Assembly: GCA_965237675.1 (NCBI GenBank)
Contig: OZ250150.1
Span: 1,504,001-1,568,000, forward strand
DNA: 64,000 nucleotides
Origin: Candidatus Latescibacterota bacterium
GTDB taxonomy: Bacteria > Latescibacterota > UBA2968 > GCA-2709665
Reading direction: 5' to 3'
The position numbers and the translations under genes were made by a program. Under the pieces are notes generated by a model. It ran no database searches and was not told the origin of the DNA. It saw only the letters and a list, made by a program, of their open reading frames with translations. The stretch's first letter is position 1. The number at the start of each line of letters is the position of its first letter. Shown here piece by piece: positions 7,780-55,150 of the stretch.

Positions 7780-9455
7780 AAGTTGACGCAAAATGCGACA
7801 CGGACAATCCGATACGGTGGAACACGGATATGATAAACCAAATCCGATCAGCATCCAACAAAACGAAGGGGCGGTTCGCGAACCGCCCCTTCAAAATCCA
7901 GGCATTGGCAGATTGACCCCACCAAGCCATATCGCCTTCTCCCCCTCTCCTCGCAGGAGAGGGGGCCGGGGGGAGAGGTTCCCCCTCGTCGCGTCACGCA
8001 ATTAGCCGATTGACAACGCCAGTCCGTATCGATGTCCGGTGGGTGCAGGGTGGTCCTCTTCCGTCTCCCCTCTCCCTTCTAACTGCCGTTCGTGGTTGCT
8101 CATGTCGCGGCATGGATATGATAATCCAAATCCCTTCAGCATCCAACACTACGTAGGGGCGGTTCGGGAACCGCCCCTACAAAAACCGGACATCTGCGAA
8201 TTGATATCTCCGGGTTTCGCGTCTCCGTCGTTACAATTGTAGGGGCAACCCTTGTGGTTGCCCTCCTTGCGGCGCTCACGTCAATCGATTGGGTTTTAGC
8301 TGATCGCTGCCTGCTGACCGCTGATTGGTTCTCGCTGGCAGGAAACAACTGGAAATTCGGTCGACAGACCTTTCGAGAGAATAACCAGAGCAGAGCGCGC
8401 TGTTCCGTCCAGCAACGAACACCACTATCCTCCATCGTTTTCAGGGCAAAGGATCATGTGCATCCCGTTAGGTAGTTCGCGCTGTGCATGTCGACGGCCC
8501 CGCCTGCCTGTGCGTGGCCGCACGCAGACAGGCGCCTGGCGGCGACTTTTAAAAACGGTAAGAAGCAAGAGGCAAGAAGGTAGAAGGGTTAATAACTTTG
8601 TCATATGAAACCCTCTGAACCGGAGTCTCGCTAACTGGAAAATAGAAGTGGATCGCGAAAGAGGGCGTGTAACCGGTGGGTGGCTGAGTGGCCTTCTTAC
8701 CTCTACCGTCTTACGTCTCACGGTTTCAAGGAACCCGCCGCAGGCAGGGAATTTGGGGAGAAGTGGATTTTGTGTTTATTTTTTCCGCTGTGCCTTTGTG
8801 TGAGCTGTTGTTTCTGCACCGACAGGCGGCCGACCCGTGGGTCGCCCCTACAAAAACCAGACGTCGGCAAATCGATATGGCGTGGCCATGTCGCTAACCG
8901 GTGTTGGCTGACTGCTAGTTCCGCCGGAGGCACGAAAAAACATATAGGCAAAGGCGAATGATGGGTTGTGCTCCCGACCTGTGGAGTCATTTCTCTCTCT
9001 ATCTTTTCATTCTCTTTTCTTCGTCCTTTTTCACGCCCAAGAAAAAGGACCAAAAAGAACGGCGCCGTTCGGCACGGGGCCGGTTTTTCCGCGAATCACC
9101 TTAGTGGAGAAATCGTGAGACATTGGCCTGAGACCGCGTGAGCATACGCGATGCGGTGGCGGGTGACGGAATAACGCAGAAAAACCCCCCTCTCCGCCAC
9201 CGGGCGGGTGAGTGGGAACGGTGTTTGGCCGCGGTCGCCTCATCCTCACCAAACGGGAGGTTCGCGAACCGCCCCTACAAAAACCGGACATCCGCGAATT
9301 GATATCGCCGGGTTTCGCGGCGCCGCTGTTGCATTTGCAGGGGCAACCCTTGTGGTTGCCCCATGATGGCGTTGACATCGGCAATTGACATCGCCGATCC
9401 GTGTCGCCAACCGGTTCTGGCTGACCGCTGACTACTGATGGCTGATCGCTGTTTT
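7780..9455. repeat. Intergenic mosaic of REP/REPIN/MITE modules
   Basis: REP palindromes GTAGGGGCGGTTCGGGAACCGCCCCTAC (8153) and GTAGGGGCAACCCTTGTGGTTGCCC (8239), a 177-bp element at 8551-8727, a variable-arm element at 9021-9185, and GCTGACC-type heptamer runs. Confidence 0.85.
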
Positions 9456-9458
9456 TTT

Positions 9459-11579
9459 CTAACCGCTATTCCTTCCGAAGTCTTTCGCGAAGACCAGAAA
9501 GTCGCCGAACCCAATTGTCCCGTCGCCATCCAGATCGTACCGCGTGCTGTAACGCAGGTCTCCCTGACTCAACCCGAATTTCGCCGCGAACTGAATGAAG
9601 TCGTCAAAATCCACGGCGCCATCGCCGTTGAAATCGGGATCGGGGGTTTGCGAAACTCGGTACGGCGCCAGGTCCCACAGTAGCATCGTGCCAGCATGAG
9701 ATCCCGACGCAAGCGTCTTGCTATCGGGAGAAAACAACACGCTGCTGATGGCGAGATTGTGCCCTTCAAAGGTAGCGACAATGTCGCCCGTCGACATGTC
9801 GTATAGCCTCACCAGCGTTCCCTGCTCACTCGTGGCGAACATCGTCCTGTCCGGGGAGAATGCCACGCAAGCTTTCGCCTTTTCTTCCAACGTGGCGCTG
9901 GCAGAGCCCGTCGCCAGGTCCCACACCTTGACGGTACCGTGGTATGAAGCGGTAGCCAGTGCTGTCCCGTCCTGTGAAAAGGCCATGGAGAGAACCCGTT
10001 CAGAATGTCCTTCCAGGTCGCGGGTGGTGGAACCCGTCACCACGTCCCACATCCTGATCTCGCCGTTGCTGGTCCCGGCAGCCAGCGTCGCGCCATCCGG
10101 GGAAAAAAGCAGCGTCCCGACGCGATAATTGAGGCTGTTAAGCCTGACGATCCTGGTTGCGGTTTTCGCGTGCCAGAGGTTGACATTTCCTTCGAAGTCC
10201 CCCGAAGCAATGGTTGTTCCATCGGGTGAAAAGGACACCGAAGCGACTTGAAAATTGTGTGGGAATGTGTTGATGCGGCTGTGTGTGTCCAGGTTCCATA
10301 ACCTGACCGTCCTGTCGGATGATGCGGAAGCAAGGGTCGCCCCGTCCGGTGAAAACGATATCGAGTAGACCACACTGGTATGCCCGCTTAGGGTTGCCTG
10401 CATCAGTCCCGTTGCGGCGTCCCATATATTGACGTCTCCCATTGCTGCAGGGGTATGGGAAGCCAGCGTTGTGCCGTCTGGTGAAAACGCCATACCCCAG
10501 ACATCTCCCATGTAGCCTGAGATGGCGGTGGTATTTCCCGTAACCAGGTTCCACAGGAAAACGCCACCATCTTCAGATGCGGTGGCGAGGGTCGTCCCAT
10601 CAGAAGAATATGAAATCGCACTGACCTTGCCCCGATGGCGGTCAAACGTGGCGATATTTCGGCCAGTCGCCGTGTGCCAGATTTTGACCGAGCCGTTATA
10701 TGCCCCGGAGGCGAGAGTGGAGCCAGTTGGAGAAAACGCGACAGCGTAAATGCCGAAACCTTGTTTCGGGAGGGTAGCGGCTATTGTGCCCGACGCGACA
10801 TCCCACAGCTTGATCGTGCCGTCAGCGGATGCCGACGCGAGGGTTCTCCCATCTGGAGAAAAGGACACGGAGGTGACCTCCCGACCATGCCCCTCCAGGG
10901 TAGTGGTATTGGTGCGCGTCGTCACGTCCCACAAATGGACCGTGCTGCCACCGGAAGCCCACGCGAGGGTCTTCCCATCCGGTGAAAAGGACATCGAGAT
11001 GTCGAAGGACCAATCTCCCACGATTCCCACGAGGGCAGAGGTGAGTCTTCCGGTGGCCACGTCCAACCGTTCGAGTCTTCCACGACTGGAGGGAAAAATG
11101 AAGGTTTTACCGTCCGGAGACAACGACAGATATATCTTTCTCCACGTTTCAGGTGTAACAGTGGCCGTATTTGTTCCCGTAGCCACGTCCCACAGCCTGA
11201 CCTCCGAGTGTCCCCGCAAGTGGCCTCCTGCGGCAAGCGTCGTACCGTCGGACGAAAAGGACAACGAATGGACGACGCCGGACGGTAGCAGAGTGAATCT
11301 TTCGGGATCCTCCACGGAGTAGAGCCATACGCCGATGCCGCTTGCTACGGCGACAAGTTTACCGTCCGGAGAAAAAGCAACCGCCCTGTCGGTTAGTCCA
11401 ATGCGTCCCTTCCCAATTCGGACGGTGGCGCCTTGCGGAAGGTGCCACGTCGGATAATCGAGGGCGTTACCAGGCGATGCGGAAATGGCAGACATCGGTG
11501 AGAGGAAGAGCCCGACCGCGGCGAAAAGGCAAGTGCTGAAGCCTTTAACTGACACAAGCCGATGAATGGCATTGCACAT
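9459..11579 (-). CDS. Secreted WD40-repeat (about 13-14 blades) protein with C-terminal dockerin/EF-hand-like pair
   Basis: AGGAGG RBS and signal-peptide-like N-terminus, repeated SVSFSPDG.TLAS.S.DGT.KLWD, C-terminal PDFNGDGAVDFDDF...DLDGDGTIGFGDF. Confidence 0.92.
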   Translation of the reverse strand: MCNAIHRLVSVKGFSTCLFAAVGLFLSPMSAISASPGNALDYPTWHLPQGATVRIGKGRIGLTDRAVAFSPDGKLVAVASGIGVWLYSVEDPERFTLLPSGVVHSLSFSSDGTTLAAGGHLRGHSEVRLWDVATGTNTATVTPETWRKIYLSLSPDGKTFIFPSSRGRLERLDVATGRLTSALVGIVGDWSFDISMSFSPDGKTLAWASGGSTVHLWDVTTRTNTTTLEGHGREVTSVSFSPDGRTLASASADGTIKLWDVASGTIAATLPKQGFGIYAVAFSPTGSTLASGAYNGSVKIWHTATGRNIATFDRHRGKVSAISYSSDGTTLATASEDGGVFLWNLVTGNTTAISGYMGDVWGMAFSPDGTTLASHTPAAMGDVNIWDAATGLMQATLSGHTSVVYSISFSPDGATLASASSDRTVRLWNLDTHSRINTFPHNFQVASVSFSPDGTTIASGDFEGNVNLWHAKTATRIVRLNSLNYRVGTLLFSPDGATLAAGTSNGEIRMWDVVTGSTTRDLEGHSERVLSMAFSQDGTALATASYHGTVKVWDLATGSASATLEEKAKACVAFSPDRTMFATSEQGTLVRLYDMSTGDIVATFEGHNLAISSVLFSPDSKTLASGSHAGTMLLWDLAPYRVSQTPDPDFNGDGAVDFDDFIQFAAKFGLSQGDLRYSTRYDLDGDGTIGFGDFLVFAKDFGRNSG

Positions 11580-11914
11580 GGGAAACCTCCTTCTTTGTGA
11601 GAGCGGGTTGCCTGTAACGTGAGGCGGGCCCGTATACCACCGGCGTCGTGTAATTTCATTCACTTTCGGAACCTCAAGCAGCCCGTTACAGGCAGGCGTG
11701 CGAACCGTGTCCGGAATCGTCGAAGTTCTGCTATTGAAGATCAAGAGGATTGTATGTTTTGCGATCTTGTCTCTTTCGCTACTTCATGCTCTCTTAATTC
11801 GTAAAATAAGGCTCATTGATTTAGATAACAAGAGGAATTCGTGGTTTTTTTCAATTGCCATTCCTGGTTGAAATTGCCTGTGCCGATGGGTCTGATGCGA
11901 AAGCGTTATTCGGA

Positions 11915-12400
11915 AGTGTCGCAAAACGCGACAGTGTGTCTAGCGATTTCCCCTTCGTATGAGCCGGTGTTTCCATGTGGTCAGGCGGGCGGTTCGCGAA
12001 CCGCCCCTACAAAAAACGGACATCCGTGAATTGATATCGCCAGGCCAAATCGTTAGCCGGTGTTAGCTGATTGCTGTAATCTGTCCGCTATCTGCTGCAC
12101 GTTCTTCCCGGGAGCGAGGGATTCCAGCCCTCGTGGCGCCGTCGTTACAATTGTAGGGGCAACCCTTGTGGTTGCCCCATCATGGCGTTGACATCGGCAA
12201 TTGACATCGCCGGTCCGTATCGCCAACTGCTGATCGCTGACCACGCCGGCCGGGCGGTTCGCGAACCGCCCCTACAAAAAACGGACATCCGTGATATTGA
12301 TATCGCCGGGCCATATCGCCAACTCCCCCTCTCCTCGCAGGAGAGGGGGCTGGGGGGAGAGGTCCCGCCTTTAGCTGACAACTGAGAGCTGTACGCTGAT
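11915..12400. repeat. Intergenic REP mosaic
   Basis: GGGCGGTTCGCGAACCGCCCCTAC at ~11987 and ~12252, REP at 12153, CCCCCTCTCC..GGAGAGGGGG hairpin at ~12325, heptamer runs. Confidence 0.8.
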
Positions 12401-28596: not shown

Positions 28597-28684
28597 ATAC
28601 GGTTTCGATTCCTGCGCGTTTTGTCCAGGATGGTTGATGCGCTCAAGCGATACCTCGAACCAAAGTTTGAAAGGGATTCACGCC

Positions 28685-28865
28685 CGCTTCCTCAACGACT
28701 CGCGGATCCAGAAAAGCGCGAACGACGACTGGAAGGTGGAGCGGACATTCTTGTCTGCTCACGTACATCGAACCCTAACCTCGGAATCCTGTGTCCGGAC
28801 ACGCCGCGACTCGCCGCCGTCTCCCGCACTGGAAGAAGGACGGCGCTATCTATTGGATCACCTTT
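28685..28865 (+). repeat. 181-bp direct repeat, copy 1 (REP hairpin plus first ~25 codons of the RAYT gene)
   Basis: Matches 29458-29638 with one mismatch seen. Confidence 0.9.
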
Positions 28866-29420
28866 CGCCTCGCTGACGCGATCCCCCGGGACAAACGTCG
28901 CGCCTTCCAGGAAGCGCGTAAGCTGTGGCTCAAGCGCCACCCCGAACCGTGGACGGACGCTGAGTGGAAAGAATACAACCGACGTTTCGATGAAAAGATC
29001 GAATCTTGGCTCGATGCCGGATTGGGTTCCCGCGCCTTGGCGCACATCGATGCCCGCGAAGCTGTCAAGAACTGTCTTTTGCGCTTCGACGGTGAAAGAC
29101 TGCGGCTTCACGCAGCCGTCATCATGCCCACGCATGTTCACCTCCTTATGGAACCGCTGGGAGGCCATAACCTTTCGCGGATTCTGCGGGGCATTAAGGG
29201 CGCATCTGCCCGCGAAATCAACAAACTCATTGGCGTCACCGGGACTTTCTGGCTCGACGAATCCTATGATCACGTAGTGCGCAGCGAAAAGCAGTATTGG
29301 CGCTTCGTCCGCTACATCATGGAAAACCCCACAAAAGCCGGACTGCGCAACCAGGAGTATTGGCTTTATAGAGGCGGCGCAAGCCTTTCTTCTGTCCGCA
29401 TTCTGGCAGAAGGACAATGA
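28791..29420 (+). CDS. REP-associated tyrosine transposase (RAYT, HUH/Y1, IS200-like)
   Basis: RRRLPHW, YWITFRL, IMPTHVHLL (HUH), FWLDESYDHVVR, YIMENP catalytic Tyr. Flanked by GTGG-type REP hairpins. Confidence 0.9.
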   Translation: MSGHAATRRRLPHWKKDGAIYWITFRLADAIPRDKRRAFQEARKLWLKRHPEPWTDAEWKEYNRRFDEKIESWLDAGLGSRALAHIDAREAVKNCLLRFDGERLRLHAAVIMPTHVHLLMEPLGGHNLSRILRGIKGASAREINKLIGVTGTFWLDESYDHVVRSEKQYWRFVRYIMENPTKAGLRNQEYWLYRGGASLSSVRILAEGQ

Positions 29421-35727: not shown

Positions 35728-36185
35728 GAGGTGAGACGGAAGAGGTGAGATGGGTCGGTAACGTTGCCGCATGATATCCCGCTGGGTGGTCTTAATGCTG
35801 TGCGCCGCCGGCTTCCTCTGGGAGCGCGGGTGTCCCGCCCGCGTGGCGCCGTCGTCTTTGCATTTGTAGGGGCAACCCTTGGGGTTGCCCTCTAGATAGC
35901 GAGGATATCGCTGTCTGAATCGCTGCAGTTAACACCCGGCAGTACGCTGTCCGTTGATTGATATGGGGTATCTGTAGGGGCGACCGGCCGGTCGCCCCTA
36001 CGCCTTGCTGCGCCCTATCTGATCCTGCCACGTCACGGCGCCGACATCCGTGAATTGATATCGCCAGGCCTTGTCGCAAACCGCCTTTAGCTGACTGCTG
36101 ATAGCTGACTGCTGATCGCTGATGGCTGGTGGCTGCGAGCGGCGTGGAGGGGTGGCCTTCTCACCTCTCCCGTCTTACTTCTTGC
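35728..36185. repeat. Intergenic REP mosaic
   Basis: REPs at 35866 and 35974, GCTGACT/GCTGATA heptamer run at 36089-36125, GTGAGAC / TCTCACC heptamer ends. Confidence 0.8.
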
Positions 36186-41589: not shown

Positions 41590-41872
41590 TCCCTAACTTC
41601 GATTTCGTCCGTACACGGACGCCACGGGGCGGGGCGGGCAACCGGGAAATTCGCGTGTGGGTCCGGGTCGATGCGGACTGCAAGTTTGGCAGACGGTCCC
41701 GTCTCCCGGGCGAAACGCCGCCGCGGGGAATCGGCCTGGATGCCTATCCGTCCGTCCAAATGCGATCGGGTCCCGGCCGCGCGGGCGCCGCGGATTGGCG
41801 CTTGACACAACCGCGCCGGGCGTCGTTATTGCCGAACTCCGAGATCCGCCGCGTAGCGCCGCTGTTGCATTT

Positions 41873-44503
41873 GTAGGGGCAACCCTTGTGGTTGCCCAGG
41901 TGATGGCGTTGATATCGCCCATTGATATAGCCAGGCCATATCGCTAACCGGCTTTAGCTGACCGCTGCAGGCTGATCGCTGACATCAGAGCTAAGGTGAA
42001 TTATTCGCAAAAAAGGTAGATTCGTTACTCCAAGTCATTGTATTATGGTTACGCAAATAACCTTATAGCAATGAATTTGGAAGAAACTACCGTGGGGGCT
42101 CAAGATAGTCATCACAGGATCCTTTTCTCAAGTCTATTCGGTGAAAAGTGAAGGGATTGATCATCATGGAGGACCTCTCCCCCCGGCCCCCTCTCCTGCA
42201 AGGAAAGGGGGAGTTGAACCAGGCGTTGTGCCAACACGGTTTTATATGAGCTCTGATTGAGCGGACCAACCACAATATTTCGCCGGGATTTTTTCAACAA
42301 TGGAAACGTCTTCAGCCAATCCAACGGTTCATTAACCGATCACGGTTCCCCCTTCCTCTCAGGAAGGGGGTTAGGGGGTAGGTCTCGCAGGTCTCGCCAG
42401 AGCTGTCGTTCTTCTTCTAACATGTCAGCCCGCAAACCTCACGCCGACTTCACTTTCTCGATTCACTCGGAAGCTGTTTCTGCTTCCTGAAACTGCAATC
42501 CGTGACAATTCATGAATTAATCAGATCTAAATTATTATTTTTCACGCCCTTTTTCTTGTACGCCCAAGAAAAAGGACCAAAAAGAACGGCGCCGTTCGGC
42601 ACGGGGCCGGTTTTTCCGCGAAACGTTTCAGGGGTAATAAAGGGAATTGGCTGCCCTGAGAGCCACTCAGGTGTACCAGTGCGATGGTGCTGGACGGATT
42701 AGCGCGGAAAAGCCCCGTCACCACCGCTGTTGCATTTTGCGACACCTGGAAGCGGGGGCGTAGCGCCGTCGTTTTATTTGTAGGGGCAACCCTTGTGGTT
42801 GCCCAGGTGATGGCGTTGATATCGCCCATTGATATAGCTAGGCCATATCGCTAACCGGCTTTAGCTGACCGCTGCAGGCTGATCGCTGACATCAGAGCTA
42901 AGGTGAATTATTCGCAAGAAAGGCAGTTTCGTTACTCCAAGTCATTGTATTATGGTTACGCAAATAACCTTATAGCAATGAATTTGGAAGAAACTACCGT
43001 GGGGGCTCAAGATAGTCATCACAGGATCCTTTTCTCAAGTCTTTAGCGAGGACCTCTCCCCCCGGCCCCCTCTCCTGCGAGGAGAGGGGGAGTTAAACCA
43101 GGCGTTGTGCCAACACGGTTTTATATGAGCTCTGATTGAGCGGACCAACCACAATATTTCGCCGGGATTTTTTCAACAATGGAAACGTCTTCAGCCAATC
43201 CAACGGTTCATTAACCGATCACGGTTCCCCCTTCCTCTCAGGAAGGGGGTTAGGGGGTAGGTCTCGCAGGTCTCGCCAGAGCTGTCGTTCTTCTTGTAAC
43301 ATGTCAGCCCGCAAACCTCACGCCGACTTCACTTTCTCGATTCACTCGGAAGCTGTTTCTGCTTCCTGATACCGCTATCCGTGACAATTCATGAATGAAT
43401 CAGATCTAAATTCTTGATTCTTATTTTTCCTCGCCCTTTTTCTTGTACGCCCAAGAAAAAGGGCCAAAAAGAACGGCGCCGCTCAAACGCCGCGGGGCTG
43501 CTTTTCCGCGAAACCCCTCAGTGGCGCAGACCAGCTTCGATGCCCTACGAGCGTTTGCGGAGTTCCCAGGCGACAGGCGTTGGACGGAATAGCGCGGAAA
43601 AACCCCCCACGCCACCGTTGTTGCATTTTGCGACACCTGGAAGCGCGGGTTCCCGCGCCGCCGTTGCAGTTTGTAGGGGCAACCCTTGTGGTTGCCCAGG
43701 TGATGGCGTTGATATCGCCCATTGATATCGCTAGGCCATATCGCTAACCGGCTTTAGCTGACCGCTGCAGGCGGATCGCTGACATCAGAGCTAAGCCTCT
43801 TTAATTCACACAAAAGGAAGTCTCCTTGCTCAAGTCATTGTATTCTGGCTTACTTAATTAACCTTATAACAATGAACCTGGAGCAACCTGGCGTGGAGGC
43901 TCAAGATAATCATCACAGAATCCTTTTCGCGAGTCTTTAGTGAGGACCTCTCCCCCCGGCCCCCTCTCCTGCGAGGAGAGGGGGAGTTGAACCAGGCGTT
44001 GTGCCAACACGGTTTTATATGAGCTCTGATTGAGCGGACCAACCACAATATTTCGCCTGGATTTTTTCAACAATGGAAACGTCTTCAGCCAATCCAACGG
44101 TTCATTAACCGATCGCAGTTCCCCCTTCCTCTCAGGAAGGGGGTTAGGGGGTAGGTCTCGCAGGTCTCGCCAGAGCTGTCGTTCTTCTTCTAACATGTCA
44201 GCCCGCAAACCTCACGCCGACTTCACTTTCTCGATTCACCCGGAAGCTGTTTCTGCTTCCTGAAACTGCAATCCGTGACAATTCATGAATTAATCAGATT
44301 TAAATGCTTGATTTTTCTTCGCCCTTTTTCTTGTACGCCCAAGAAAAAGGGCCAAAAAGAACGGCGCCGCTCAAACGCCGCGGGGCTGCTTTTCCGCGAA
44401 ACCCCTCAGTGGCGCAGACCAGCTTCGATGCCCTACGAGACCTTGCGGAATTTCCAGGCAATAGTGCTGGACGGAATAGCGCGGAAAAGCCCCGTCACCA
44501 CCA
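41873..44503 (+). repeat. Three tandem ~900-bp composite repeat units made of nested MITEs
   Basis: Units start at REPs 41873, 42780 and 43673 (periods 907 and 893 bp), with long near-identical stretches. Confidence 0.92.
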
Positions 44504-44950
44504 CCGGGCGGGTTAGAGAGAAACGCGAGGGACCGGAAAAAAGAACGCCTCCCTCGCGTTCGGAAAGCAAAACGGGACTGGAACGCAAAGCCCGTCCGGA
44601 GGGCAACCAGAGCAGAGCGCGCTATTCCGTCCATCTCGGAGATCGGGTACCCGCCCTCGCTGGCAGGGCAACGGGTCGTGTGCATCCTGTGAGGAAATTC
44701 GCGCTGTGTATAAGTACGGCCCCGCGCCCAGCGGCGACTTTTAAAAGCGGTAAGAAGCAAGAGGCAAGAAGGTAGAAGGGTTAATAACTTTGTCATATGA
44801 AACCCTCTGAACCGGAGTCTCGCTAACTGGAAAATAGAAGTGGATCGCGAAAGAGGGCGCGTAACCGGTGGGTGGCGGCGTGGCCTTCTCACCTCTACCG
44901 TCTTACGTCTCACGGTTTCAAGGAACCCTCCGAAGGCAGGGAATTTGGGG
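44320..44950. mobile_element. Full-length variable-arm element carrying a nested 177-bp element (44743-44919)
   Basis: Left arm 44320-44488 and inverted right arm 44606-44705. Second full copy at 51483-52110. Confidence 0.65.
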
Positions 44951-45054
44951 AGATGTAGAATTGGATTCTGGTTTTCGCTCTTTGCTACAAGGTGTCTGCT
45001 GACCGCTAATAGCTGTTTTTTCTGATCGCTATTTGTTGCTTTGGGGTTTCTCCA

Positions 45055-45924
45055 ATGGATCGCGTGGTTGAAAACGCCCCGGCCAAGCTCAACCTGGGTC
45101 TGAAAATCCTGGGCCGCCGGGCGGATGGGTATCACGATATCGTTTCCGTGCTTCAGACGGTGGATCTGTGCGACCGGCTGGTGTTCACGCCCGCGGCGCC
45201 CGGGGAAACCCTGATTGTCTGCGACCATCCGGACGTTCCCGAGGGGCCGGAAAACCTCGTCCATCGGGCCGTGGAGATTCTGCGCCGCGCAACGGGGGCC
45301 GACCACGGGGTGCGCGTGGATCTGAACAAACGGATACCGACGGGTGCGGGCCTGGGCGGCGGAAGTTCCGACGCGGCCACGTCCCTGCGGGCGCTGGACC
45401 GGCTCTGGGGACTGCATTTGCATCCGGAAAAATTGGCCGCGCTCGCGGCGGAACTCGGGTCCGACGTCCCGTTCTTTCTCACCGGAGGCACGGCCGTCGT
45501 GACGGGGCGCGGGGAGCGGATCCGGCCCGTCGATTGGGGGGGCGAATTCTGGTACGTGCTGGTGTATCCCGGGTTCCCCGTGTCCACCGCCTGGGCCTAT
45601 CGAAACGTGAGAATTGGCTTGACAGAAACCCGGGCGTATGGTAGATTTCTGGACTTTACGATAAAATCCGGCCGGATCTGCGCTGGCCGATTGTTCGCGT
45701 GCCTGGAAAACGACTTTCTGCCGCTCGTGGAAGCCGCAAGCACCGACGTCGCGCGGATCCTTACGGCGCTGGTCGGCGAGGGGGCGGTCGCATGCTCCCT
45801 TTCGGGCAGCGGATCCACGCTCTTCGGCGTTTTTCGCGAGGCCCGGCAGGCGTCGGCCGCGGTTGCGCTTGTACAGGGCCGCGGGCGTCGGGTCTATCTG
45901 TGTCGTAACCGGCCCCGGGCGTGA
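45055..45924 (+). CDS. ispE: 4-diphosphocytidyl-2-C-methyl-D-erythritol kinase
   Basis: APAKLNLGL, KRIPTGAGLGGGSSDAA, LGSDVPFF, GRGE, NDF, SGSGST. Confidence 0.97.
   Translation: MDRVVENAPAKLNLGLKILGRRADGYHDIVSVLQTVDLCDRLVFTPAAPGETLIVCDHPDVPEGPENLVHRAVEILRRATGADHGVRVDLNKRIPTGAGLGGGSSDAATSLRALDRLWGLHLHPEKLAALAAELGSDVPFFLTGGTAVVTGRGERIRPVDWGGEFWYVLVYPGFPVSTAWAYRNVRIGLTETRAYGRFLDFTIKSGRICAGRLFACLENDFLPLVEAASTDVARILTALVGEGAVACSLSGSGSTLFGVFREARQASAAVALVQGRGRRVYLCRNRPRA
45619..45647 (+). promoter_or_regulatory. Promoter internal to ispE, probably driving tRNA-Gln-rplY
   Basis: TTGACA-N17-TAGATT with extended -10 TG. Confidence 0.6.
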
Positions 45925-46067
45925 GTTCGGCAGAGCGGCCGGCCTCGTCGGAACCGGATCGGCTGTTGCAACGATATATTATTGTATAGAAAACGACCCC
46001 GGTCGATTGCCGCCTCAATGGAGGTTTGGGGATCGATCGTAGCGCGCACCCGGGTTACCGTATTTGA

Positions 46068-46138
46068 TGCCGGGTCGTCTAAAGGTAAGACAACGGCCTT
46101 TGGAGCCGTCTATCGGGGTTCGAATCCCTGCCCGGCAG
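46068..46138 (+). tRNA. tRNA-Gln (anticodon TTG), CCA not encoded
   Basis: Acceptor stem TGCCGGG/CCCGGCA, anticodon arm ACGGC-CTTTGGA-GCCGT, T-loop GGTTCGAATCC. Conserved position after ispE. Confidence 0.95.
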
Positions 46139-46172
46139 TTTAAAGTCGCACCGTTCAGTGGAGGATCAGTCA

Positions 46173-46859
46173 ATGGCTGACAATAACGGCGTAAGGCTGC
46201 AGGCCGAAGTACGCACGGGAACCGGAAAGGGCGAGGCCAAGCGCATCCGGCGTACCGGAAGGATACCGGCGGTGGTCTATGGGGACCGGAGCGCGCCCGT
46301 CACCTGTTCGGTCGACGCGAAGGCGTTATCAACGGTCTTGCACGAACACGGGCGGAATACGCTTCTGTCCCTGGTTCTGGGCAACGGCGAGAGCGAATCC
46401 GAAAACACCGCCATTGTCAAAGATCTTCAACACCACCCGATCGGCGACCACGTCCTCCACGTGGATTTTTACCGGATTTCGCTCACCCAGAAAATCGTTG
46501 TGGAAGTGCGCATCGAGCCCGAAGGCATTCCGGCCGGCGTCCGTGCGGAGAGCGGTATTCTGGAGCAGTTGCTGCACCATGTGGAGGTGTCCTGCCTGCC
46601 CGGCGAGATTCCGGAACGCATCGGGTACGAGGTTACGAATCTGAATATCGGAGATTCGGTGCATGTGTCCGATCTGAGCGTGACGGCCAACGTGGAGATC
46701 GTTGCCGAGGGCGACCGGTCCGTGTTCGTGGTGGTTCCGCCAACCGTGGCCCCGGTCGTAGAGGAAGAGGAAGAGGAAGAGGACATGGAGGCCGAGGCCG
46801 AGATGCAGGAACCCGAGGTGATCGAACGCGGCAAACGCGAGGAAGACGAGGACGAATAG
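46173..46859 (+). CDS. rplY: 50S ribosomal protein L25/Ctc
   Basis: GKGEAKRIRRTGRIPAVVYG, LHVDF, acidic tail. GGAGGA RBS. Confidence 0.96.
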   Translation: MADNNGVRLQAEVRTGTGKGEAKRIRRTGRIPAVVYGDRSAPVTCSVDAKALSTVLHEHGRNTLLSLVLGNGESESENTAIVKDLQHHPIGDHVLHVDFYRISLTQKIVVEVRIEPEGIPAGVRAESGILEQLLHHVEVSCLPGEIPERIGYEVTNLNIGDSVHVSDLSVTANVEIVAEGDRSVFVVVPPTVAPVVEEEEEEEDMEAEAEMQEPEVIERGKREEDEDE

Positions 46860-46956
46860 CGGTGTGCCGACGTGTCGCAAAATGCGACACCTGGGGCCGC
46901 GGGGAGGTCTTCTTGCGTCTCACGTGTTGCTTCTTGCCGCATGAAGGCGGTGCGGA

Positions 46957-47523
46957 GTGACAGCTAAGGTTGTCGTGGGTCTGGGCAACCCGGGTTCCGA
47001 ATACGCTCATACCCGCCACAACCTGGGCTTTCGGGTGGTCGATCTGCTGGCGGGAAGGTTGAAGGGAACCTGGTCGGAAAGCACCTGGTATTTTTTTTGC
47101 CGGATCGCGACGGGTTCCGAGACGCTGGTGCTCGTGAAACCGACCACTTTCATGAATCGAAGCGGCGTTGCGGTTACAGACGTTCTGGATCGATTCGAAG
47201 CCGATGTCGAGGACGTTCTGGTGGTGGTGGACGACGTCCACCTCGACCTGGGCCGGATCCGGTTGCGGCGCGGGGGCAGCGACGGGGGGCACAACGGGCT
47301 GCGGTCGATTATCGATTGCGTCGGGTCCGCCGCGTTTCCCAGGCTGCGACTGGGTATCGGCGCACCGCCGGAGGGTACGGACCGGATCGGGCACGTTCTG
47401 AGCGCGTTAGAAGCCGGAGAATACGACACGGTCGAGGCGGCGATTCGCGAAGCGGCCAGCGGTGTGAGATGCTGGATGGAATCCGGAATAGACGTGGCGA
47501 TGAATCGGTATAATTCACTGTAG
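46957..47523 (+). CDS. pth: Peptidyl-tRNA hydrolase
   Basis: VGLGNPG..Y..TRHNLGF, KPTTFMNRSG, GGHNGL.SI, RLRLGIG. Confidence 0.97.
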   Translation: MTAKVVVGLGNPGSEYAHTRHNLGFRVVDLLAGRLKGTWSESTWYFFCRIATGSETLVLVKPTTFMNRSGVAVTDVLDRFEADVEDVLVVVDDVHLDLGRIRLRRGGSDGGHNGLRSIIDCVGSAAFPRLRLGIGAPPEGTDRIGHVLSALEAGEYDTVEAAIREAASGVRCWMESGIDVAMNRYNSL

Positions 47524-47524
47524 G

Positions 47525-48960
47525 AGCAACCCTCACGGCCGCTCCCCGGGAGCGCGGGCGTCTCGCCCGCATGGCGCCGACGTCGCATTTGTAGGGGCAA
47601 CCCTTGTGGTTGCCCGCATCACGACGCTGACATCCGTGATAATGATATCGCCAGGCCATATTGAAAGCCGGTTTTAGCTCACTGCTGATGGCTGACATCA
47701 GAGCCAAATTCTTAAATATTATTTTTCCTCGCCCTTTTTCTTGTACGCCCAAGAATCGGCTGGAAGCAAGAGGGAAGACGTGGGAAGGGTTGGTAACATT
47801 GTCGGATGACACCCCCGCACAATGGCTTGTCGAGCCGTTGAGGAAGCGTGTGTGAAGGTGGGGCAGACATTCCTGTCTGCCCATCTCGTGTTTACGCAAC
47901 ACTTCGTTCGACTCCCCCTCTCCTCGCAGGAGAGGGGGCCGGGGGGAGAGGTCCTTCTGCCGGAATGCAGACAGAAGAAAGGGTTGCGCCGACGTCAGCA
48001 TTTGTAGGGGCAACCCTTGTGGTTACCCGCGTCAGGGCGATGTTATCGGTAATGGTCTTCGCCAGGCCATATTGCAACGGACTCTCGCCGAGTTGAAGTT
48101 GACCGCTCATCTTCCGAAAGCCAGTCAGTTCTCGATCGCGAGCCCTGTCCGGAGGACCACCAGAGCAGAGCGCGCGGTTCCGTCCATCTCGGAGATCGGG
48201 TACCCGCCCTCGCAGGTAGGGCAACGGGTCGTGTGCATCCTGTGAGGGTGTTCGCGCTGTGTATATGGCAGGCTCCGCCTGCCTGTGCGTTGCCGCACGC
48301 AGACAGGCGCCTGGCGGCGACTTTTAAAAGCGGTAAGAAGCAAGAAGGTAGAAGGGTTAATAACTTTGTCATATGAAACCCTCTGAACCGGAGTCTCGCT
48401 AACTGGAAAATAGAAGTGGATCGCGAAAGAGGGCGCGTAACCGGTGGGTGGCGGCGTGGCCTTCTCACCTCTCCCGTCTTTCGTCTCACGGTTTCAAGGA
48501 ACCCTCCGGAGGCAGGGAATTTGAGGAGAGGTTGTGATTTTGGAGTAAAATTCTTATTTATTATTTTCTTCGCCCTTTTTCTTGTACGCCCAAGAAAAAG
48601 GGCCAAAAAGAACGGCGCCGCTCAAACGCCGCGGGGCTGCTTTTCCGCAAATCGCCTCAACAGTGTCGACAGGCTTTGGTGCCCTTTGTCCCTTCCATCC
48701 GTTCCTGAACCATGGTGGTGGACGGATTAGCGCGGAAAAGCCCCGTCACCACCACCGGGCGGGCGTGAGGCAGATCGGGAAGGACCGCCACGCGGATTGG
48801 CTTCGAACCGCAGGTGTCGCATTTGTAGGGGCAACCCTTGTGGTTACCCGCGTCAGGGCGATGTTATCGGTAATGGTCTTCGCCAGGCCATATTGCAACG
48901 GACTCTCGCCGGGTTTAAGCTGATTCCTGTTTTTCCCCTTGTGTCTTCGTGTGAGTTGAT
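47525..48960. repeat. Intergenic REP/MITE mosaic island
   Basis: REPs at 47591, 48004 and 48825, RAYT-flank homolog at ~47831-47990 (minus), 170-bp element at 48326-48495, variable arms at 48159-48262 and 48571-48739. Confidence 0.88.
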
Positions 48961-49010
48961 TGTCGACTTTCCTGCTGTATGCTGACTGCTGCTTTTTCAG
49001 GAGGATTCTT

Positions 49011-51038
49011 ATGGTCTGGACGCCAATAGTCTGGACGCCAATCTTTGGGATTGCCGGGTTGCTGGTCGCCGGGCTGATTTACTTGAGAATTGCCCGTAAA
49101 CCGGCCGGAACGGATCGGATGCGAGAGATTTCGGATGCCATCCACGAAGGCGCCATGGCGTTCTTGAAACGCGAATACGTGGTTCTGGCGGTTTTCATCG
49201 TGGCGGTTTTCATCTTGCTTTCGATCGGGATCAGGCCGTTCAGCACGGCGTTCGCGTTCCTGGCCGGCGCAATCTGTTCCATCGGCGCCGGTTTTTTCGG
49301 TATGAAGGCGGCCACCAAGGCCAACGTGCGCACCGCGTATGCCGCCAACCGCGAGGGCCAGGCAGAGGCCCTGGGCGTGGCTTTCTCCGGCGGAACGGTG
49401 ATGGGCCTCTCGGTGGCCAGCCTCGGGCTGTTGGGCGTGGGCGTGCTGTTCCTCCTGTTCGGTAATGCGGACCAGGCCGTGGTCATCAACGGATTCGCCA
49501 TGGGCGCCAGTTCCATCGCCCTGTTCGCGCGTGTGGGCGGCGGTATCTATACCAAAACGGCCGACGTGGGGGCCGACCTGGTCGGCAAGGTGGAGGCCGG
49601 CATTCCCGAGGACGACCCGCGCAACCCCGCGGCGCTCGCCGATTTCGTGGGCGACAACGTGGGCGACGTGGCCGGGATGGGGGCCGATATCTTCGAGTCC
49701 TACGTGGGATCGATCGTGGCAACCATCGCCATCGCGGCCACGGCCGGGCCGGCCCTGATGGACACGTTGGCCGGCAGTTCCGTGTATGCCGACGCGGCCG
49801 TGAAACTGACGGCTATGCAACTGCCGCTTATCGTGGCCACGATCGGCCTGGTGGCATCGCTGATCGGCATGTTGTCCATGCCGGTCCTGCAGCGTTTCAA
49901 TCCCGCGTCCGCCCTTCGCTACGCTTCGTTCGTGGCCGCCATCGTCATGTTCGCCGGCAGCTATTTCGCGGTGGACGGCTTGGGGCTCTCCGAAGGCGTG
50001 TTCTGGGCGATTCTGCTGGGCGGCCTCACCGGCATTCTGATTGGCCTGCTCACCGAATATTACACCGGCGGCCCACCGGTCAGAAGGGTGGCCGAAGCCT
50101 CTGAAACCGGGCCCGCCACCAATATCATCTCGGGCCTGGCCATCGGCATGCAGAGCACGTTTCTGCCCGTACTGGCCATCTGCGCCGCCATCGGGTTCGC
50201 CCATCATTTCGCCGGGCTTTACGGCATCGGCATCGCGGCCGTGGGGATGCTGGCAACCGTGGGCATCACCATGGCGGTGGACGCGTACGGGCCCATCGCG
50301 GACAACGCGGGCGGCATTTCCGAAATGGCGGAACTCGGACCCGAAACCCGGAAGATCACGGACGGCCTGGACGCGCTGGGCAACACCACGGCGGCCATCG
50401 GCAAGGGCTTCGCCATCGGATCGGCGGCTCTGACGGCCCTGGCCCTCTTCTCGGCCTACGCCTCGACCGTGAAACTGGAGGTGATCAACCTCACCTCGCC
50501 GATGGTGGTGATCGGCCTTTTCATCGGTGGTTCCATCCCGTTCCTCGTCGCCGCCCAGACCATGACCTCGGTGGGGCGGGCGGCCTTCCGGATGGTGGAA
50601 GAGGTCCGGCGGCAGTTCCGGGAGATTCCCGGGTTGATGGAAGGCACCGGCAAACCCGATACCCGGCGCTGCGTGGATATCAGTACGGTCGCGGCGCTGC
50701 GGGAAATGGTGCCGCCCGGGGTCGTTGCCTTGCTCACGCCCGTGCTGGTCGGATTCATCCTCGGCAAGGAAGCGCTCGGCGGCATGCTGGCCGGCGCCCT
50801 GTTGAGCGGCATGCTGATGGCGCTGATGATGGCCAACAGCGGCGGCGTGCTGGATAACGGAAAGAAATACATCGAGGACGGCCACTTCGGCGGCAAGGGG
50901 TCCGAAGCCCACATGGCCTCGGTGGTCGGCGACACCGTGGGGGATCCGCTGAAGGACACCTCCGGCCCCTCGCTCAACATATTGATCAAATTGATGTCCG
51001 TCGTCTCGCTCGTGCTTGCACCGCTATTGATCGACTGA
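49011..51038 (+). CDS. hppA: Membrane-bound K+-dependent ion-translocating pyrophosphatase (probably Na+)
   Basis: [73 protein letters not shown]. Confidence 0.95.
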
Positions 51039-51059
51039 TATAATAACACGGCCGGTTCG

Positions 51060-52190
51060 CAGGATTCCCTGGCGCCGCGTCGTCGTTGCATTTTGCAGGA
51101 GCAACCCTTGTGGTTGCCCGCATCAAGGCGCTGACATCCGTGATTATGATATCGCCAGACCATATTGCAAGCCGGTTTTAGCTGACCGCTGTCAGCTCGA
51201 CGTTGAAAAGCCAGTCGGTTCTCGATCGCGAGCCCTGTCCGGAGGACCACCAGAGCAGAGCGCGCGGTTCCGTCCAGGGCCGAGTACCGATGTTCTTCCG
51301 TGGTTGGCAGGGCAGAGGATCATGTGCATCTCGTGAGGGGATTCGCGCTGTGCATAAGTACGGCCCCGCGCCCAGCGGCGACTTTTGGTTCCTTTTGGTC
51401 GGTTCAAAAGGAACTCGCCGAAGGCAGGTAATTTGGGGAGAGGTTGTGATTTTGGAGTAAAATTCTTATTTATTATTTTTTACGCCCTTTTTCTTTCTCG
51501 CCCAAGAAAAAGGGCCAAAAAGAACGGCGCTGCTCAGACGCCGCAGGGCTGGTTTTTCCGCGAAACGCCTCAGTGGAGAAATCGTGAGACATTGCCCTGA
51601 GACCGCCTGAGCATACACGGGACAATAGTGTTGGACGGAATAGCGCGGAAAAACCCCCCACGCCACCACCGGGCGGGTTAGTGAAACGCGAAGGACCGGA
51701 AAAAAGAACATCTCCCTCGCGTTCCGAAAGCAAAATGGGACTGGACGGCAAAGCCCGTCTGGAGGATAACCAAAGCAGAGCGCGCGGTTCCGTCTCGCAC
51801 GGAGTACCCAATTTCTTCCGTGTTTGGCAGGGCACCGGCTTTGTTGCGTCCGCCGTCGAGATTCGCGCTGTGTATAAGTACGGCCCCGCGCCCAGCGGCG
51901 ACTTTTAAAAGCGGTAAGAAGCAAGAGGCAAGAAGGTAGAAGGGTTAATAACTTTGTCATATGAAACCCTCTGAACCGGAGTCTCGCTAACTGGAAAATA
52001 GAAGTGGATCGCGAAAGAGGGCGCGTAACCGGTGGGTGGCGGCGTGGCCTTCTCACCTCTCCCGTCTTTCGTCTCACGGTTTTAAGGAACCCTCCGGAGG
52101 CAGGGAATTTGGGGAGAGGTTGTGGTTTTGAATTTGTCTTTTGCTTATAGCTGACCGCTGTACACTGACTGCTGACCGCTGAAAGCTGTT
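51060..52190. repeat. Intergenic REP/MITE mosaic island
   Basis: Variable arms at 51249-51350, 51483-51652 and 51769-51872, 177-bp element at 51907-52083, heptamer runs. Confidence 0.88.
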
Positions 52191-52258
52191 TCCCATTCAC
52201 CCCGCTCGAGGCCGCCCGGTCGGGCCGCCTTCGGGCCACACGTCCAAGGGGAGGTTCC

Positions 52259-52621
52259 ATGGCAAAACGTTACGAACTCACGATCATCGTCAATACCCAG
52301 GCGCCGGAAGGCGGTGTGGACCGCATCGTCGCGGGTTTCGAACGCCTGCTTTCGGAGAACGGCGGCAGCACGGTCAACGTCAACCGTCTGGGCACGCGCA
52401 AGCTGGCGTACGAAATCGGCAAACAGCAGCGCGGCGACTACACGTTCATCCGCTTCGAGACCTCGCCGGACGTCCTTCCCGAGGTGGACAGGATGTTCAA
52501 ACTGGACGAATCCGTGCTGCGGCACATGGTCGTCCTGGACGAGACCCCCGTGGAGGAAGAACCGGAAGCGGCCGAAGAAGACGAAAACACGGATTCAGAC
52601 GCGAAAAAGGAGGGCGCATGA
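52259..52621 (+). CDS. rpsF: 30S ribosomal protein S6
   Basis: RYELTII, G.RKLAYEI.K...[10 protein letters not shown]. Confidence 0.95.
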
Positions 52622-52706
52622 ACCGGTCCAAACAACGCGAAAAAGGAGGGCGCACGAACGGGCCCAATATACGCGAAAAAGGTGGGCGCATGAACCGGCC
52701 CAGTAT
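52599..52706 (+). repeat. 3 x 36-bp tandem repeat spanning the rpsF stop, rpsR RBS and start
   Basis: ACGCGAAAAAGG(A/T)GGGCGCA(T/C)GAAC(C/G)GG... units at 52599, 52635 and 52671. Confidence 0.9.
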
Positions 52707-52914
52707 AAAGGTTTGCAGATTTTGTGAAGACAAGGCGTTGACGATCGATTACAAGGACGTGCGGATGCTCCAGCGGTTCGTGACGGAACGGGGAAAGATT
52801 ATCCCCCGGCGCGTGTCGGGTACCTGCGCCAGGCACCAGCGCATCCTCACCCGGAATCTCAAGCGCGCCCGCCAGATCGCGCTGTTGCCCTTTACAACAG
52901 ACAACATGAATTAG
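52618..52914 (+). CDS. rpsR: 30S ribosomal protein S18 (Zn-binding C+ form)
   Basis: [34 protein letters not shown]. Alternative start at 52690. Confidence 0.96.
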
Positions 52915-52919
52915 AGTGG

Positions 52920-53810
52920 AAAGAGGTAAGAAGTAAGAGGCAAGAGGTGTTGGTAACTTTGTCACATGAGACGTCCGCAACCGGACTCTCGCAATATTCA
53001 AAAAGAAGCGGATTACGAAAGGGGGCGCGAGACTGGTGGGTTGGGGTGTGGTCCTCTCACTTCTCTCGTCTTTCCTCTTACGGCTTTTTTTGGAACTGCG
53101 TTTCGGGCAGACACTGGCATTTCTACTCTCTTCATCCTTTTTTCTTTTTCCTCGCCCTTTTTCTTGTACGCCCAAGAAAAAGGGCCAAAAAGAACGGCGC
53201 CGCTCAAACGCCGCGGGGCTGCTTTTCCGCGAAACGCGTCGGTGGCGGTGAACGGAGGAGGTGGCCTAAGAGCCTCTAAAGAGTTCCTGTACGCAGGCGT
53301 GGGACGGATTGGCGCGGAAAAGCCCCATCTCCGCCACCGTGCGCGCGAGACGTTGACCGGTAAGGCCCTCCGAGCGGGTTTGCGATTGTACCGCTTTTCG
53401 CTGTCTGCAGCTTGCGGTTTTTTCCTTTGTGTTTTTGTGTGAGGCGGTGTTTTCGTGGGTACAGGCGGGCGACCGGCCGGTCGCCCCTACCAAAACCAGG
53501 TATCCGCGAATTGACATCGCCGGTCCGTATCGCTAACCCTCCCCCTCTCCCCGTGGGAGAGGGGGCCGGGGGGTGAGGGACTTGGGGCCGATGTGGATTG
53601 GCATCGCCAGGCCGTATGGCAATCTGCCTTTTGCTTTTCGTTCTTAGCTGACCGCTGATAGCTTTCTGCTGCTTTCGTCGATGCTGCTGCCCGCTACAAA
53701 TATATCGGGGTTAACTCCCCCTTTCCTTTAGGAGAGGGGGCCGGGGGGAGAGGTCCCGCTTTTTTTTGCCTTTTGTTGTAAGCTGACTGCTGACCGCTGA
53801 TAGCTGTTCG
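52920..53810. repeat. Intergenic mosaic, including 289-bp direct repeat 53302-53590
   Basis: 53302-53590 matches 54668-54956. Variable arm at 53153-53321. Confidence 0.88.
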
Positions 53811-53867
53811 CTATATAATTAATGTAAAACGCCAGATGGCCATCGCGCCGAACGAAAGGGAACCACC

Positions 53868-54311
53868 ATGAAGGTTATATTGACGGAAGAACTGAACAAC
53901 CTTGGCCGGGCCGGATCCGTTGTGGTCGTCAAGGACGGCTACGCCCGGAACTACCTCATCCCCCGGAAACTTGCCCTGGCGGCCAGCAAGGGAAACATGA
54001 ATGTCTACGAGGAACTCAAGCGCCAGAAAGAGGCCGGCAACACCCGCGCCCAGCGCGAGGCCGCGGCCCTCTCGAGGAAACTCGAAAAGGCATCCTGCAC
54101 CATTCCCGTGGCCGTGGGCAAGGAAGACCAGATCTTCGGCTCCGTGACGGCGCAGCACATTTCCGATCAACTCGTGGAGCAGGGCTTCGAGATCGACAGG
54201 CGGTGGATCGAACTCGAGGAACCCATCCGAGCGCTCGGGGTCTACGACGTGTCCGTCCGGCTCCATGCCGAAGTACGCGCAACCGTGAAGGTGTGGGTGG
54301 TGAAGGAATAA
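53868..54311 (+). CDS. rplI: 50S ribosomal protein L9
   Basis: MKVIL...LG..G.VV.VKDGYARNYLIP, FGSVT, PIRALG.Y.V.V.LH. Confidence 0.97.
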   Translation: MKVILTEELNNLGRAGSVVVVKDGYARNYLIPRKLALAASKGNMNVYEELKRQKEAGNTRAQREAAALSRKLEKASCTIPVAVGKEDQIFGSVTAQHISDQLVEQGFEIDRRWIELEEPIRALGVYDVSVRLHAEVRATVKVWVVKE

Positions 54312-54369
54312 CCCGGCTTTTGACGTCTCAGGTTTGGTTTTCGCTTCTCGCTGTATGGTTTTCGATTTT

Positions 54370-55150
54370 TGCTTCAAGCTGACTGCTGACCGCTGATAGC
54401 TGTTTCCAGGGAATAGCACGTCATCGGCATACAAAAGCAGTGGGGAAAGACGGATGGTGGGTCTTGTTCAAGGCCCATGAGACGTTTTTCCTCCTTTCTT
54501 TTTGTTTTTTATTCATTTACGCCCTTTTTCTTTCTCGCCAAAGAAAAAGGGCCAAAAAGAACGGCGCCGCTCAGACGCCGCGGGGCTGCTTTTCCGCGAA
54601 CCACCTCGGTGTCGGAACAGGCGTCTGTGCCCTACGTACCCATATGACCACACAGCGCTCCGGTGCTGGACGGATTGGCGCGGAAAAGCCCCATCTCCGC
54701 CACCGTGCGCGCGAGACGTTGACCGGTAAGGCCCTCCGAGCGGGTTTGCGATTGTACCGCTTTTCGCTGTCTGCAGCTTGCGGTTTTTTCCTTTGTGTTT
54801 TTGTGTGAGGCGGTGTTTTCGTGGGTACAGGCGGGCGACCGGCCGGTCGCCCCTACCAAAACCAGGTATCCGCGAATTGACATCGCCGGTCCGTATCGCT
54901 AACCCTCCCCCTCTCCCCGTGGGAGAGGGGGCCGGGGGGTGAGGGACTTGGGGCCGGGGGGAGAGGTCCCGCGCGGTCGTTGCATTTGTAGGGGCGACCG
55001 CTGGGTCGCCCGGTTCGTGGCGCGCATATCGCTGATTGACATCGCCATGCCATATCGCTAACCCTCCCCCTTTCCTTTAGGAGAGGGGGCCGGGGGGAGA
55101 GGTCGTGAATTTGGTTTTCGCTTTTGCTTCAAGCTGATTGCTGATTTCTT
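54370..55150. repeat. Intergenic mosaic, including 289-bp direct repeat 54668-54956
   Basis: Variable arm at 54520-54687, REP and hairpin modules. Confidence 0.88.

Follow-up and report, generated by a model that had tools for sequence, protein, structure and literature searches.

Dispersed intergenic repeats are common, and the copies of one family are usually alike along their whole length. The pneumococcal SPRITE and the ERIC, BOX and RUP elements are dispersed intergenic units that carry a hairpin resembling a Rho-independent terminator and are co-transcribed with their neighbours. The Correia elements (CREE) of Neisseria are described as an inverted repeat with a conserved core that can make promoters, binds IHF, and is bound or cleaved by RNase III (PMC2649163). 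The REP/REPIN and BIME sequences are described as many-copy, vertically persisting, intergenic, hairpin-forming modular mosaics (PMC3337134, PMC3116915). Here a repeat family built around a boxed core of 86-91 nucleotides (nt) is characterized in a 64,000-nt stretch of a Candidatus Latescibacterota genome (contig OZ250150.1, positions 1,504,001 to 1,568,000; the window, in which all positions below are counted unless a genome position is stated), in the whole genome, and in its relatives. The core consists of about 29 near-fixed positions in three or four boxes at set spacing and about 60 positions that drift. It is an undescribed, non-coding, many-copy element of Latescibacterota genomes; no earlier description was found by title or abstract in the literature on Latescibacteria intergenic repeats, and the search went no wider.

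In behaviour the family is nearest to the Correia elements and the REPIN/BIME mosaics, and it has the defining features of neither. It resembles CREE and NEMIS as a small intergenic non-coding repeat with pairing inverted-repeat ends and, on our reading, in an inner part that would bind protein and in an effect on neighbouring transcripts, as far as those elements are described in PMC2649163. CREE copies are alike throughout, however, whereas the interior here is 41% identical and only the boxes are kept; no TA duplication or promoter-forming end is seen, a terminator is attached, and there is no sequence likeness. With REP, REPIN and BIME the family shares high copy number, intergenic position and modularity, and GTAG-type REP hairpins adjoin many of its units. 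Unlike a REP, its core is no 20-40-nt palindrome, the stem encloses about 80 unpaired nt, the GTAG hairpin is absent from the cores, and Y1/RAYT genes do not co-occur with it; membership in the REP/REPIN-RAYT group was rejected on the last two grounds. SPRITE, ERIC, BOX and RUP are short palindromes and, unlike the present family, have no boxed variable core of fixed length. Boxes that enclose variable segments of fixed length, with a terminal stem, also recall the C/D-box guide RNAs of archaea and eukaryotes and the IS110 bridge RNAs, but the boxes here are unrelated, complementarity to rRNA is at shuffle level, and neither an IS110 gene nor a partner protein was found.

Copies in the window and in the genome

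The initial annotation had described eight left arms and five right arms of a dispersed element in the window, and each of these holds one core (covariance-model E values from 1e-15 to 2e-21). The covariance model R1, made from the 13 window copies, re-finds all 13 at 65-88 bits. The pattern CGCGAA-N26-30-TGSCCT-N30-38-ACGGANNNNCGCG is matched exactly by 11 of the 13 and has no match in 100 dinucleotide shuffles of the window; the two inexact copies have a one-letter change in an end box (CGCA at 9178; CGCAAA at 48646). The orientation of the initial consensus is called F and its reverse complement R. The cores, which occur in two flank contexts (types A and B), and their attached modules are as follows.

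9090-9178, + (proposed active strand -): type A core, 67.3 bits with R1; whole unit with hairpins about 9021-9195
42617-42706, +: type A core in the first of three tandem units, each of about 890 nt and gene-free, 77.3 bits
43507-43596, +: type A core in the second tandem unit, 83.7 bits
44395-44483, +: type A core in the third tandem unit, with the B core at 44618 lying 134 nt away, 86.7 bits
48646-48734, +: type A core upstream of the H+-pyrophosphatase gene, 72.7 bits
51559-51647, +: type A core flanked by two B cores, downstream of the H+-pyrophosphatase gene, 87.8 bits
53228-53316, +: type A core between rpsR and rplI, 77.9 bits
54595-54682, +: type A core downstream of rplI, 75.0 bits
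8396-8481, -: type B core (flanks CAGAG..CTGTG), followed by the 296-nt module D1, 69.2 bits
44618-44703, -: type B core, followed by D1 and then ispE, 78.8 bits
48171-48256, -: type B core, followed by D1, 72.8 bits
51261-51347, -: type B core, 77.9 bits
51781-51867, -: type B core, with D1 and rpsF following in that order; a congener copy at another locus is 98.9% identical (R1 match)
44361-44381, -: terminator-like GC hairpin and T-run after a type A core (example, by pattern)
43473-43493, 48612-48632, 51524-51544, 53194-53214 and 54561-54581, -: further sites of GC hairpin and T-run, by pattern
44320-44352, no strand assigned: AT-rich palindrome CCCTTTTTCTT..AAGAAAAAGGG at the outer end of type A units (example; repeat family D6, nine places in the window)
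47711-47782, +: cut-off AT-rich hairpin module without a core (D6, 63% to the reference)
44661-44956, +: module D1, 296 nt, after type B cores; other copies at 8469-8764, 48237-48532 and 51825-52120

The terminal AT-rich hairpin CCCTTTTTCTT..AAGAAAAAGGG is present in all eight '+' copies, as had been noted, and the ninth, cut-off copy at 47711-47782 had been overlooked. The three tandem units occupy about 41850-44500 (repeats D3 and D5; spacing 879-907) and contain one type-A copy each.

In the 5.6-Mb, 3-contig genome nhmmer finds 90 copies, none with fewer than 83 of the 89 model positions covered, and the covariance model finds 91, every one of which spans model positions 1-89. None of the 90 overlaps a gene as called by an in-house codon-usage gene finder, a crude tool that recovers the Pfam-supported genes of the window. 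The gaps that harbour copies have a median length of 1060-1230 nt, versus 88-298 nt genome-wide, and 49 of the 90 copies are concentrated within 1.0-2.0 Mb of the genome.

The same core is found in two flank contexts. Type A (72 copies, including all eight '+' copies of the window) reads on R as ..GGGG(C/T)TTTTC, core, GAAAA(G/A)C..CCCC, GC hairpin, TTCTTTTT and the AT-rich palindrome. In type B (18 copies, including the five '-' copies) CAGAG..CTGTG encloses the core, and module D1, which contains purine-rich GGTAAGAAG words and a TAACTTTG word and precedes genes, follows. For 12 of the 18 B copies an A copy lies within 450 nt, in constant relative orientation, and six further A/B neighbours are opposite. 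Since a neighbouring B copy is missing from most A copies, the left and right arms do not represent opposite ends of a single transposon; the "full element" of the initial annotation at 44320-44742 is an A and a B core that face each other. Type-A copies are oriented without bias with respect to the neighbouring genes. On R, 16 of the 18 type-B cores face a downstream gene that runs in the same direction; B together with D1 may thus be a module that carries a leader or promoter.

Constraint on length and boxes

In an alignment of 90 copies, the 29 columns with a conservation of at least 80% show 89% pairwise identity, whereas the other 60 columns show 41%. Grouping the 90 copies by their variable columns at 80% identity gives 63 clusters, and most copies are thus not recent duplicates. 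Close pairs differ by 0.059 per site in the boxes versus 0.162 in the variable columns. Length is nearly constant: type-A cores are of 89 nt (55 copies), 90 nt (13), 88 nt (3) or 91 nt (1), and type-B cores of 86 nt (13) or 87 nt (5). Cores of a sister bacterial family, taken from five genomes, are 86-87 nt long and have identical boxes at identical places. The proposal that length is constrained while most of the sequence drifts is borne out by these figures, with near-constant length in both types (88-91 and 86-87 nt) around 60 columns that are about 41% identical. A coding mini-gene was ruled out: no reading frame is kept open across the copies, the best one being open in just 72% (A) or 83% (B) of them, and the lengths of 86-91 nt do not go in steps of three.

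Closing stem and internal fold

The core is closed by a stem composed of P1 (4 bp) and P0 (about 7-11 bp). The inverted repeat TTTTCCGCG..CGCGGAAAA that had been pointed out is genuine, and covariation was found. P1 is 97.4% paired in 114 distinct sequences from several genomes, and three of its four pairs are changed on both sides, in 2, 8 and 11 sequences. Two helices scored together reach a covariation score of 0.163, against 0.123±0.005 for shuffles, none of which (of 500) attains that value. On 173 distinct cores the P1 pairs switch from G-C to A-T (9), from C-G to T-A (14) and from G-C to A-T (7). Nearly all type-A copies have Watson-Crick pairs at P0 offsets 1-7, and offset 6 switches between C-G and T-A. 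In the sister family the stems are replaced by other complementary words (GATTTTC/GAAAATC, GCACAG/CTGTGC and CGCA/TGCG).

Inside the stem, a weak second helix joins the box CCTC with GA.GG and is 85% paired. No stable core fold was found on either strand (minimum free energy, MFE, z about 0 for 45 of the 90 copies, with 25 mononucleotide shuffles each), and RNAalifold on 115 sequences predicts P1 alone. There is no internal position-wise covariation in the core beyond subfamily linkage, and the consensus folds of subfamilies are mutually inconsistent. Apart from a small 2-bp hairpin signal at box 2, CC..GG, the pairing profile is the same as in controls whose variable columns were shuffled. 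Two structural candidates were rejected. A fold derived from 17 sister-family copies (a box-2 hairpin, and box 3 paired with box 4) is reduced on the 173 cores to CC/GG and partial outer pairs. A pseudoknot between the upstream GGTGGTGG and the core gave 4.32 of 8 pairs versus 4.26, and 51 of 300 permutations scored at least as well; an earlier duplex test of the same pairing had given a small excess (-14.5 versus -13.6 kcal). A structured small RNA with conserved internal covarying structure finds no counterpart here, the closing stem being the only such element.

Strand and terminator

On R, 66 of the 72 type-A copies have a GC hairpin and T-run immediately behind the stem; on F none of the 72 does. 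The terminator is defined here as a GC hairpin followed by at least five T in eight positions, which is a pattern rather than a measurement. In relatives the pattern occurs at 35 of 86 copies on R and at 7 of 86 on the other strand; in the sister family a hairpin and T-run, judged by eye, is kept at the same place with a different sequence. Among the 173 cores, 25 have half-changed P1 states that are G.U on R, and two have such states that are G.U on F. R is favoured because of the one-sided hairpin and T-run, the sister-family hairpin at that place and the G.U intermediates, and judged from the letters it is probably the active strand. The initial consensus was thus probably written on the wrong strand, the terminator-like hairpin and T-run lying on the reverse complement of its "left arm".

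Distribution and turnover between genomes

A search with model R1 detected the element in 38 of 61 related genomes. All 14 other genomes of the genus have it, with 10 to at least 72 matches each. By bacterial family, 19 of 21 genomes of f1 and 18 of 31 genomes of the sister family f2 are positive, and none of eight genomes of f3 and f4. A scan for the exact box pattern, with one genome per species, returned at least 110 stretches, and 31 loci among the matches listed were scored with the model. Sixteen of these have 32-64 bits: five are titled Latescibacterota, eight are titled Gemmatimonadota, and three come from one further metagenome-assembled genome (MAG). The other 15, single loci in other phyla, have at most 21 bits or nothing, which is chance level. 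The model thus separates the clade cleanly (over 30 bits versus at most 21 bits for chance matches). Three MAGs with the depositor title Gemmatimonadota hold genuine copies (51-64 bits), which puts either the label or the range of the clade in question.

The housekeeping gene order of the window (TPR protein, ispE, tRNA-Gln, L25, pth, H+-pyrophosphatase, S6, S18 and L9) is kept in four congeners. The syntenic 15-kb stretch has 10 copies here versus 7, 2, 0 and 0 in the four. Three junctions were compared between genomes. Where the three tandem units stand here, one A plus B is present in the closest congener. At the second junction an A copy is present here, and the congeners have a B copy in opposite orientation (one), a 20-nt remnant (one) or nothing (three). 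At the third, flanks that lie 2-3 nt apart in a congener are separated here by a 745-nt composite block that contains one A copy, just upstream of a promoter-like site, TTGACA-N17-TAGATA. No direct repeat was found there as a target-site duplication; this is a single filled/empty site, and the insert is the 745-nt composite. Copies at the same junction in congeners differ within the core. The B copy upstream of ispE in one congener is 98.9% identical to the B copy upstream of rpsF in this genome; the pyrophosphatase gene of that congener is 92% identical.

Partner enzyme, targets and known families

No named family had been recognized in the initial annotation, and Rfam 15 gives the same result: at the gathering score the whole window matches tRNA-Gln alone, and with E values up to 10 the cores in 42000-55500 remain unmatched. 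The statement that no cognate enzyme is evident likewise stands. TnpB-type (PF07282) and IS110-type (PF01548) genes have no match in the genome, which is 99.9% complete. An omega-RNA of IS200/IS605 or a bridge RNA of IS110, which would call for an adjacent TnpB/IscB or IS110 recombinase gene, was rejected on these two negatives. Three Y1_Tnp genes are present in the genome, one of them within the window. Y1_Tnp does not track the element: seven of the 14 other genus genomes are without a Y1_Tnp match and all 14 have the element, and two genomes with 32 and 61 Y1_Tnp matches have no element match. Nor was a copy found that encloses a gene as an autonomous partner, for which the initial annotation had advised looking, and no pair of copies was seen to flank a transposase near the clusters examined. 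One copy, at genome position 2832356, has a flank that looks coding; this flank was rejected as such a partner, since it lies next to an McrBC island and not a recombinase.

The genes of that island, McrB-like (AAA_5/Mrr_N) and McrC (contig C1, 2829256-2832245), end 110 nt from the type-A core. This core has lost the terminator and hairpin modules, and it looks as if the island was inserted into the unit.

The suggestion that the variable parts are guide-like loops found no target excess in the own genome, rRNA, phages or plasmids. Against the own genome the best match of the variable parts has 28.9 bits versus 28.8 for shuffles; the longest complementary runs in the rRNA operon are of 8.77 versus 8.63±0.19 and 7.99 versus 8.67±0.18 nt in shuffles; and phage and plasmid collections gave no match for two stretches that hold five cores. 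A C/D-box-like guide RNA was rejected on the shuffle-level rRNA and genome matches. An integron attC site was also rejected: the end boxes are CGCG/CGCG, both orientations are dispersed, and the length is fixed at 86-91 nt. Between the two readings that the initial annotation had offered for the core, spaced protein-binding boxes, be it on DNA or on RNA, fit best, and guide loops found no support.

Interpretation and rival explanations

The preferred reading is that the family consists of clade-restricted, modular, non-coding intergenic repeats that are mobile-like and work as a folded single strand; we give it an even chance of being right. The R strand would be transcribed, by read-through or otherwise, and the transcribed unit would form a loop of about 80 nt, clamped by the stem and otherwise without structure, with an intrinsic terminator behind it. 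The boxes would be the contact points of a distance-measuring protein, and length but not sequence would be kept because that protein would measure the distance between them. The box reader could be the machinery that copies the units or a host factor acting at transcript ends.

Several points weigh against this reading. No target-site duplication, gene-enclosing copy or partner enzyme was found. "Mobile" here refers to presence and absence alone, and deletion plus recombination among repeats could give the same picture. The box-reading protein is purely putative. The second helix has 44 U.G cells on F, the wobbles of P0 are nearly even (18 on R versus 12 on F), and no type-B copy (0 of 18) shows the terminator pattern. 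A sigma-70-like promoter was sought upstream of type-A units and gave two loose matches in 69 copies, and five on the opposite strand, by a consensus that may not be that of the phylum; as a promoter-like motif is lacking and type-A orientation is unbiased, transcription of R is not assured. Four metatranscriptome runs contained 5% of the sampled words, and contigs of relatives (90% likeness, up to tens of kb) touch repeat modules; such contigs show neither strand, ends nor transcription of the units.

The one-strand terminator after 66 of 72 A copies would also suit small RNA genes that form a large family of paralogues and are transcribed independently. Each would be a scaffold clamped by the stem, with its own terminator, and its variable segments would specify targets for a guide, antisense or decoy RNA that a box-binding protein reads. 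The covarying closing stem with G.U intermediates on the terminator strand, the mostly distinct copies (63 clusters at 80%), and boxes and length kept across two bacterial families all agree with this. Yet the upstream promoter-like motif was not found, there is no excess complementarity to the own genome (28.9 versus 28.8 bits) or rRNA, the phage and plasmid collections are unmatched by the two stretches with five cores, and the copies, unlike conserved small RNA genes, are not kept at syntenic sites of congeners. We hold this explanation unlikely, though worth keeping in view. Its bolder form, a new bacterial RNA class in which a scaffold with three invariant protein-docking boxes presents two programmable segments of ruler length (about 20 and 34 nt), is quite improbable; if true, each genome would have tens of specificities, aimed at targets outside the collections searched, such as environmental phages, other community members or seeds of less than 12 nt. 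The core may instead act as double-stranded DNA, like the IHF- or gyrase-binding BIMEs of E. coli. The three boxes, about 34 and 42 bp apart, would then be contacts for a regulatory protein or one that organises the chromosome, with the duplex wrapped or bent. Spacers of fixed length but free sequence, the missing internal fold (MFE z about 0 for 45 of the 90 copies; P1 only by RNAalifold on 115) and the strictly intergenic, clustered copies (49 of 90 in 1.0-2.0 Mb) would follow naturally. Compensatory stem changes, strand-biased G.T intermediates and a one-sided T-run are unexpected of a duplex site, however, and we know of no protein that binds it; this explanation is also unlikely.

A stem with conserved internal asymmetry, its strand-biased G.T states, and the three Y1_Tnp genes in the genome (one in the window) raise the possibility of a folded single-stranded DNA substrate of recombination or transposition, akin to attC, IS200/IS605 or REP/RAYT and moved by a tyrosine recombinase or HUH enzyme. 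Such a substrate is hard to reconcile with the absence of replication-strand bias (37 versus 35 type-A copies), the lack of GTAG and of a GTTRRRY core, the occurrence of both orientations, a length that is fixed rather than variable, the seven of 14 genus genomes without a Y1_Tnp match, and two genomes that have 32 and 61 matches but no element; we consider it very doubtful. The initial annotation had itself named neutral decay of an ordinary miniature inverted-repeat transposable element (MITE) among the outcomes that would undo its proposal; on that view the apparent boxes would be chance survivors. In its favour, presence and absence do vary among congeners, and a truncated remnant is found in one congener and a truncated hairpin in the window. 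But all 91 copies are full length, the boxes change 2.7 times more slowly than the variable columns among close pairs, length stays within 4 nt although 59% of the variable positions differ, and boxes and length are retained in the sister family. Lengths, box rates and the sister family thus contradict neutral decay, which is barely credible.

Neighbouring repeats and genes in the window

Other repeats and genes lie around the units. The Y1_Tnp (RAYT-like) frame is at 28621-29420 (+), with the genome match at 1533097-1533321, and the approximately 370 nt that follow it (29375-29752) recur inverted in the gap between pth and the pyrophosphatase gene (47831-47991; pairs I1, I6 and I25). Two REP-like families are present with eight copies each: D8, TGTAGGGGCAACCCTTGTGGTTGCCC, with GTAG and a GC hairpin, and D19, GGGGCGGTTCGCGAACCGCCCCTAC, which is often just upstream of type-A units. 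A hairpin repeat, CTCCCCCTCTCC..GGAGAGGGGG..GGGGGGAGAGG, occurs in both orientations (D10, D18 and many inverted pairs). Short periodic words of GCTGAC(C/T)GCTGA (D9, 10 copies) stand directly upstream of several genes (44969-45018, 52142-52191, 53760-53809, 54356-54405 and others).

D8 copies: 8190-8263, 9288-9361, 12104-12177, 35817-35890, 41824-41897, 42731-42804, 47542-47615, 63920-63993
D10/D18 hairpin repeat: 6725-6819, 29658-29752, 42172-42266, 43051-43145, 43945-44039; inverted at 7939-7994, 12323-12378, 47912-47967 and others

A low-GC stretch at 56000-60000 (0.42-0.46 versus about 0.60) contains an IS1595-family transposase gene (DDE_Tnp_IS1595 with zinc ribbon) at 57132-58049 (+). 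At 9459-11744 (-) a 761-aa WD40 beta-propeller protein (Pfam) is encoded by DNA that shows a repeat of about 126 nt (D17).

Significance

Two bacterial families keep the boxes, the closing stem and the length of this element, and about 60 of its 89 positions have drifted close to random. As far as sequence can tell, this pattern is the signature of a molecular ruler, in which the boxes would be read at fixed distances. The family occupies the long gaps between genes that surround core housekeeping operons (ribosomal proteins, pth and pyrophosphatase) in an uncultured phylum, and for that reason it probably shapes where the transcripts of these operons end. The covariance model can be used as a clade marker. 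The box reader, once known, would show how gene-less elements are copied without a nearby transposase, or would reveal a host system.

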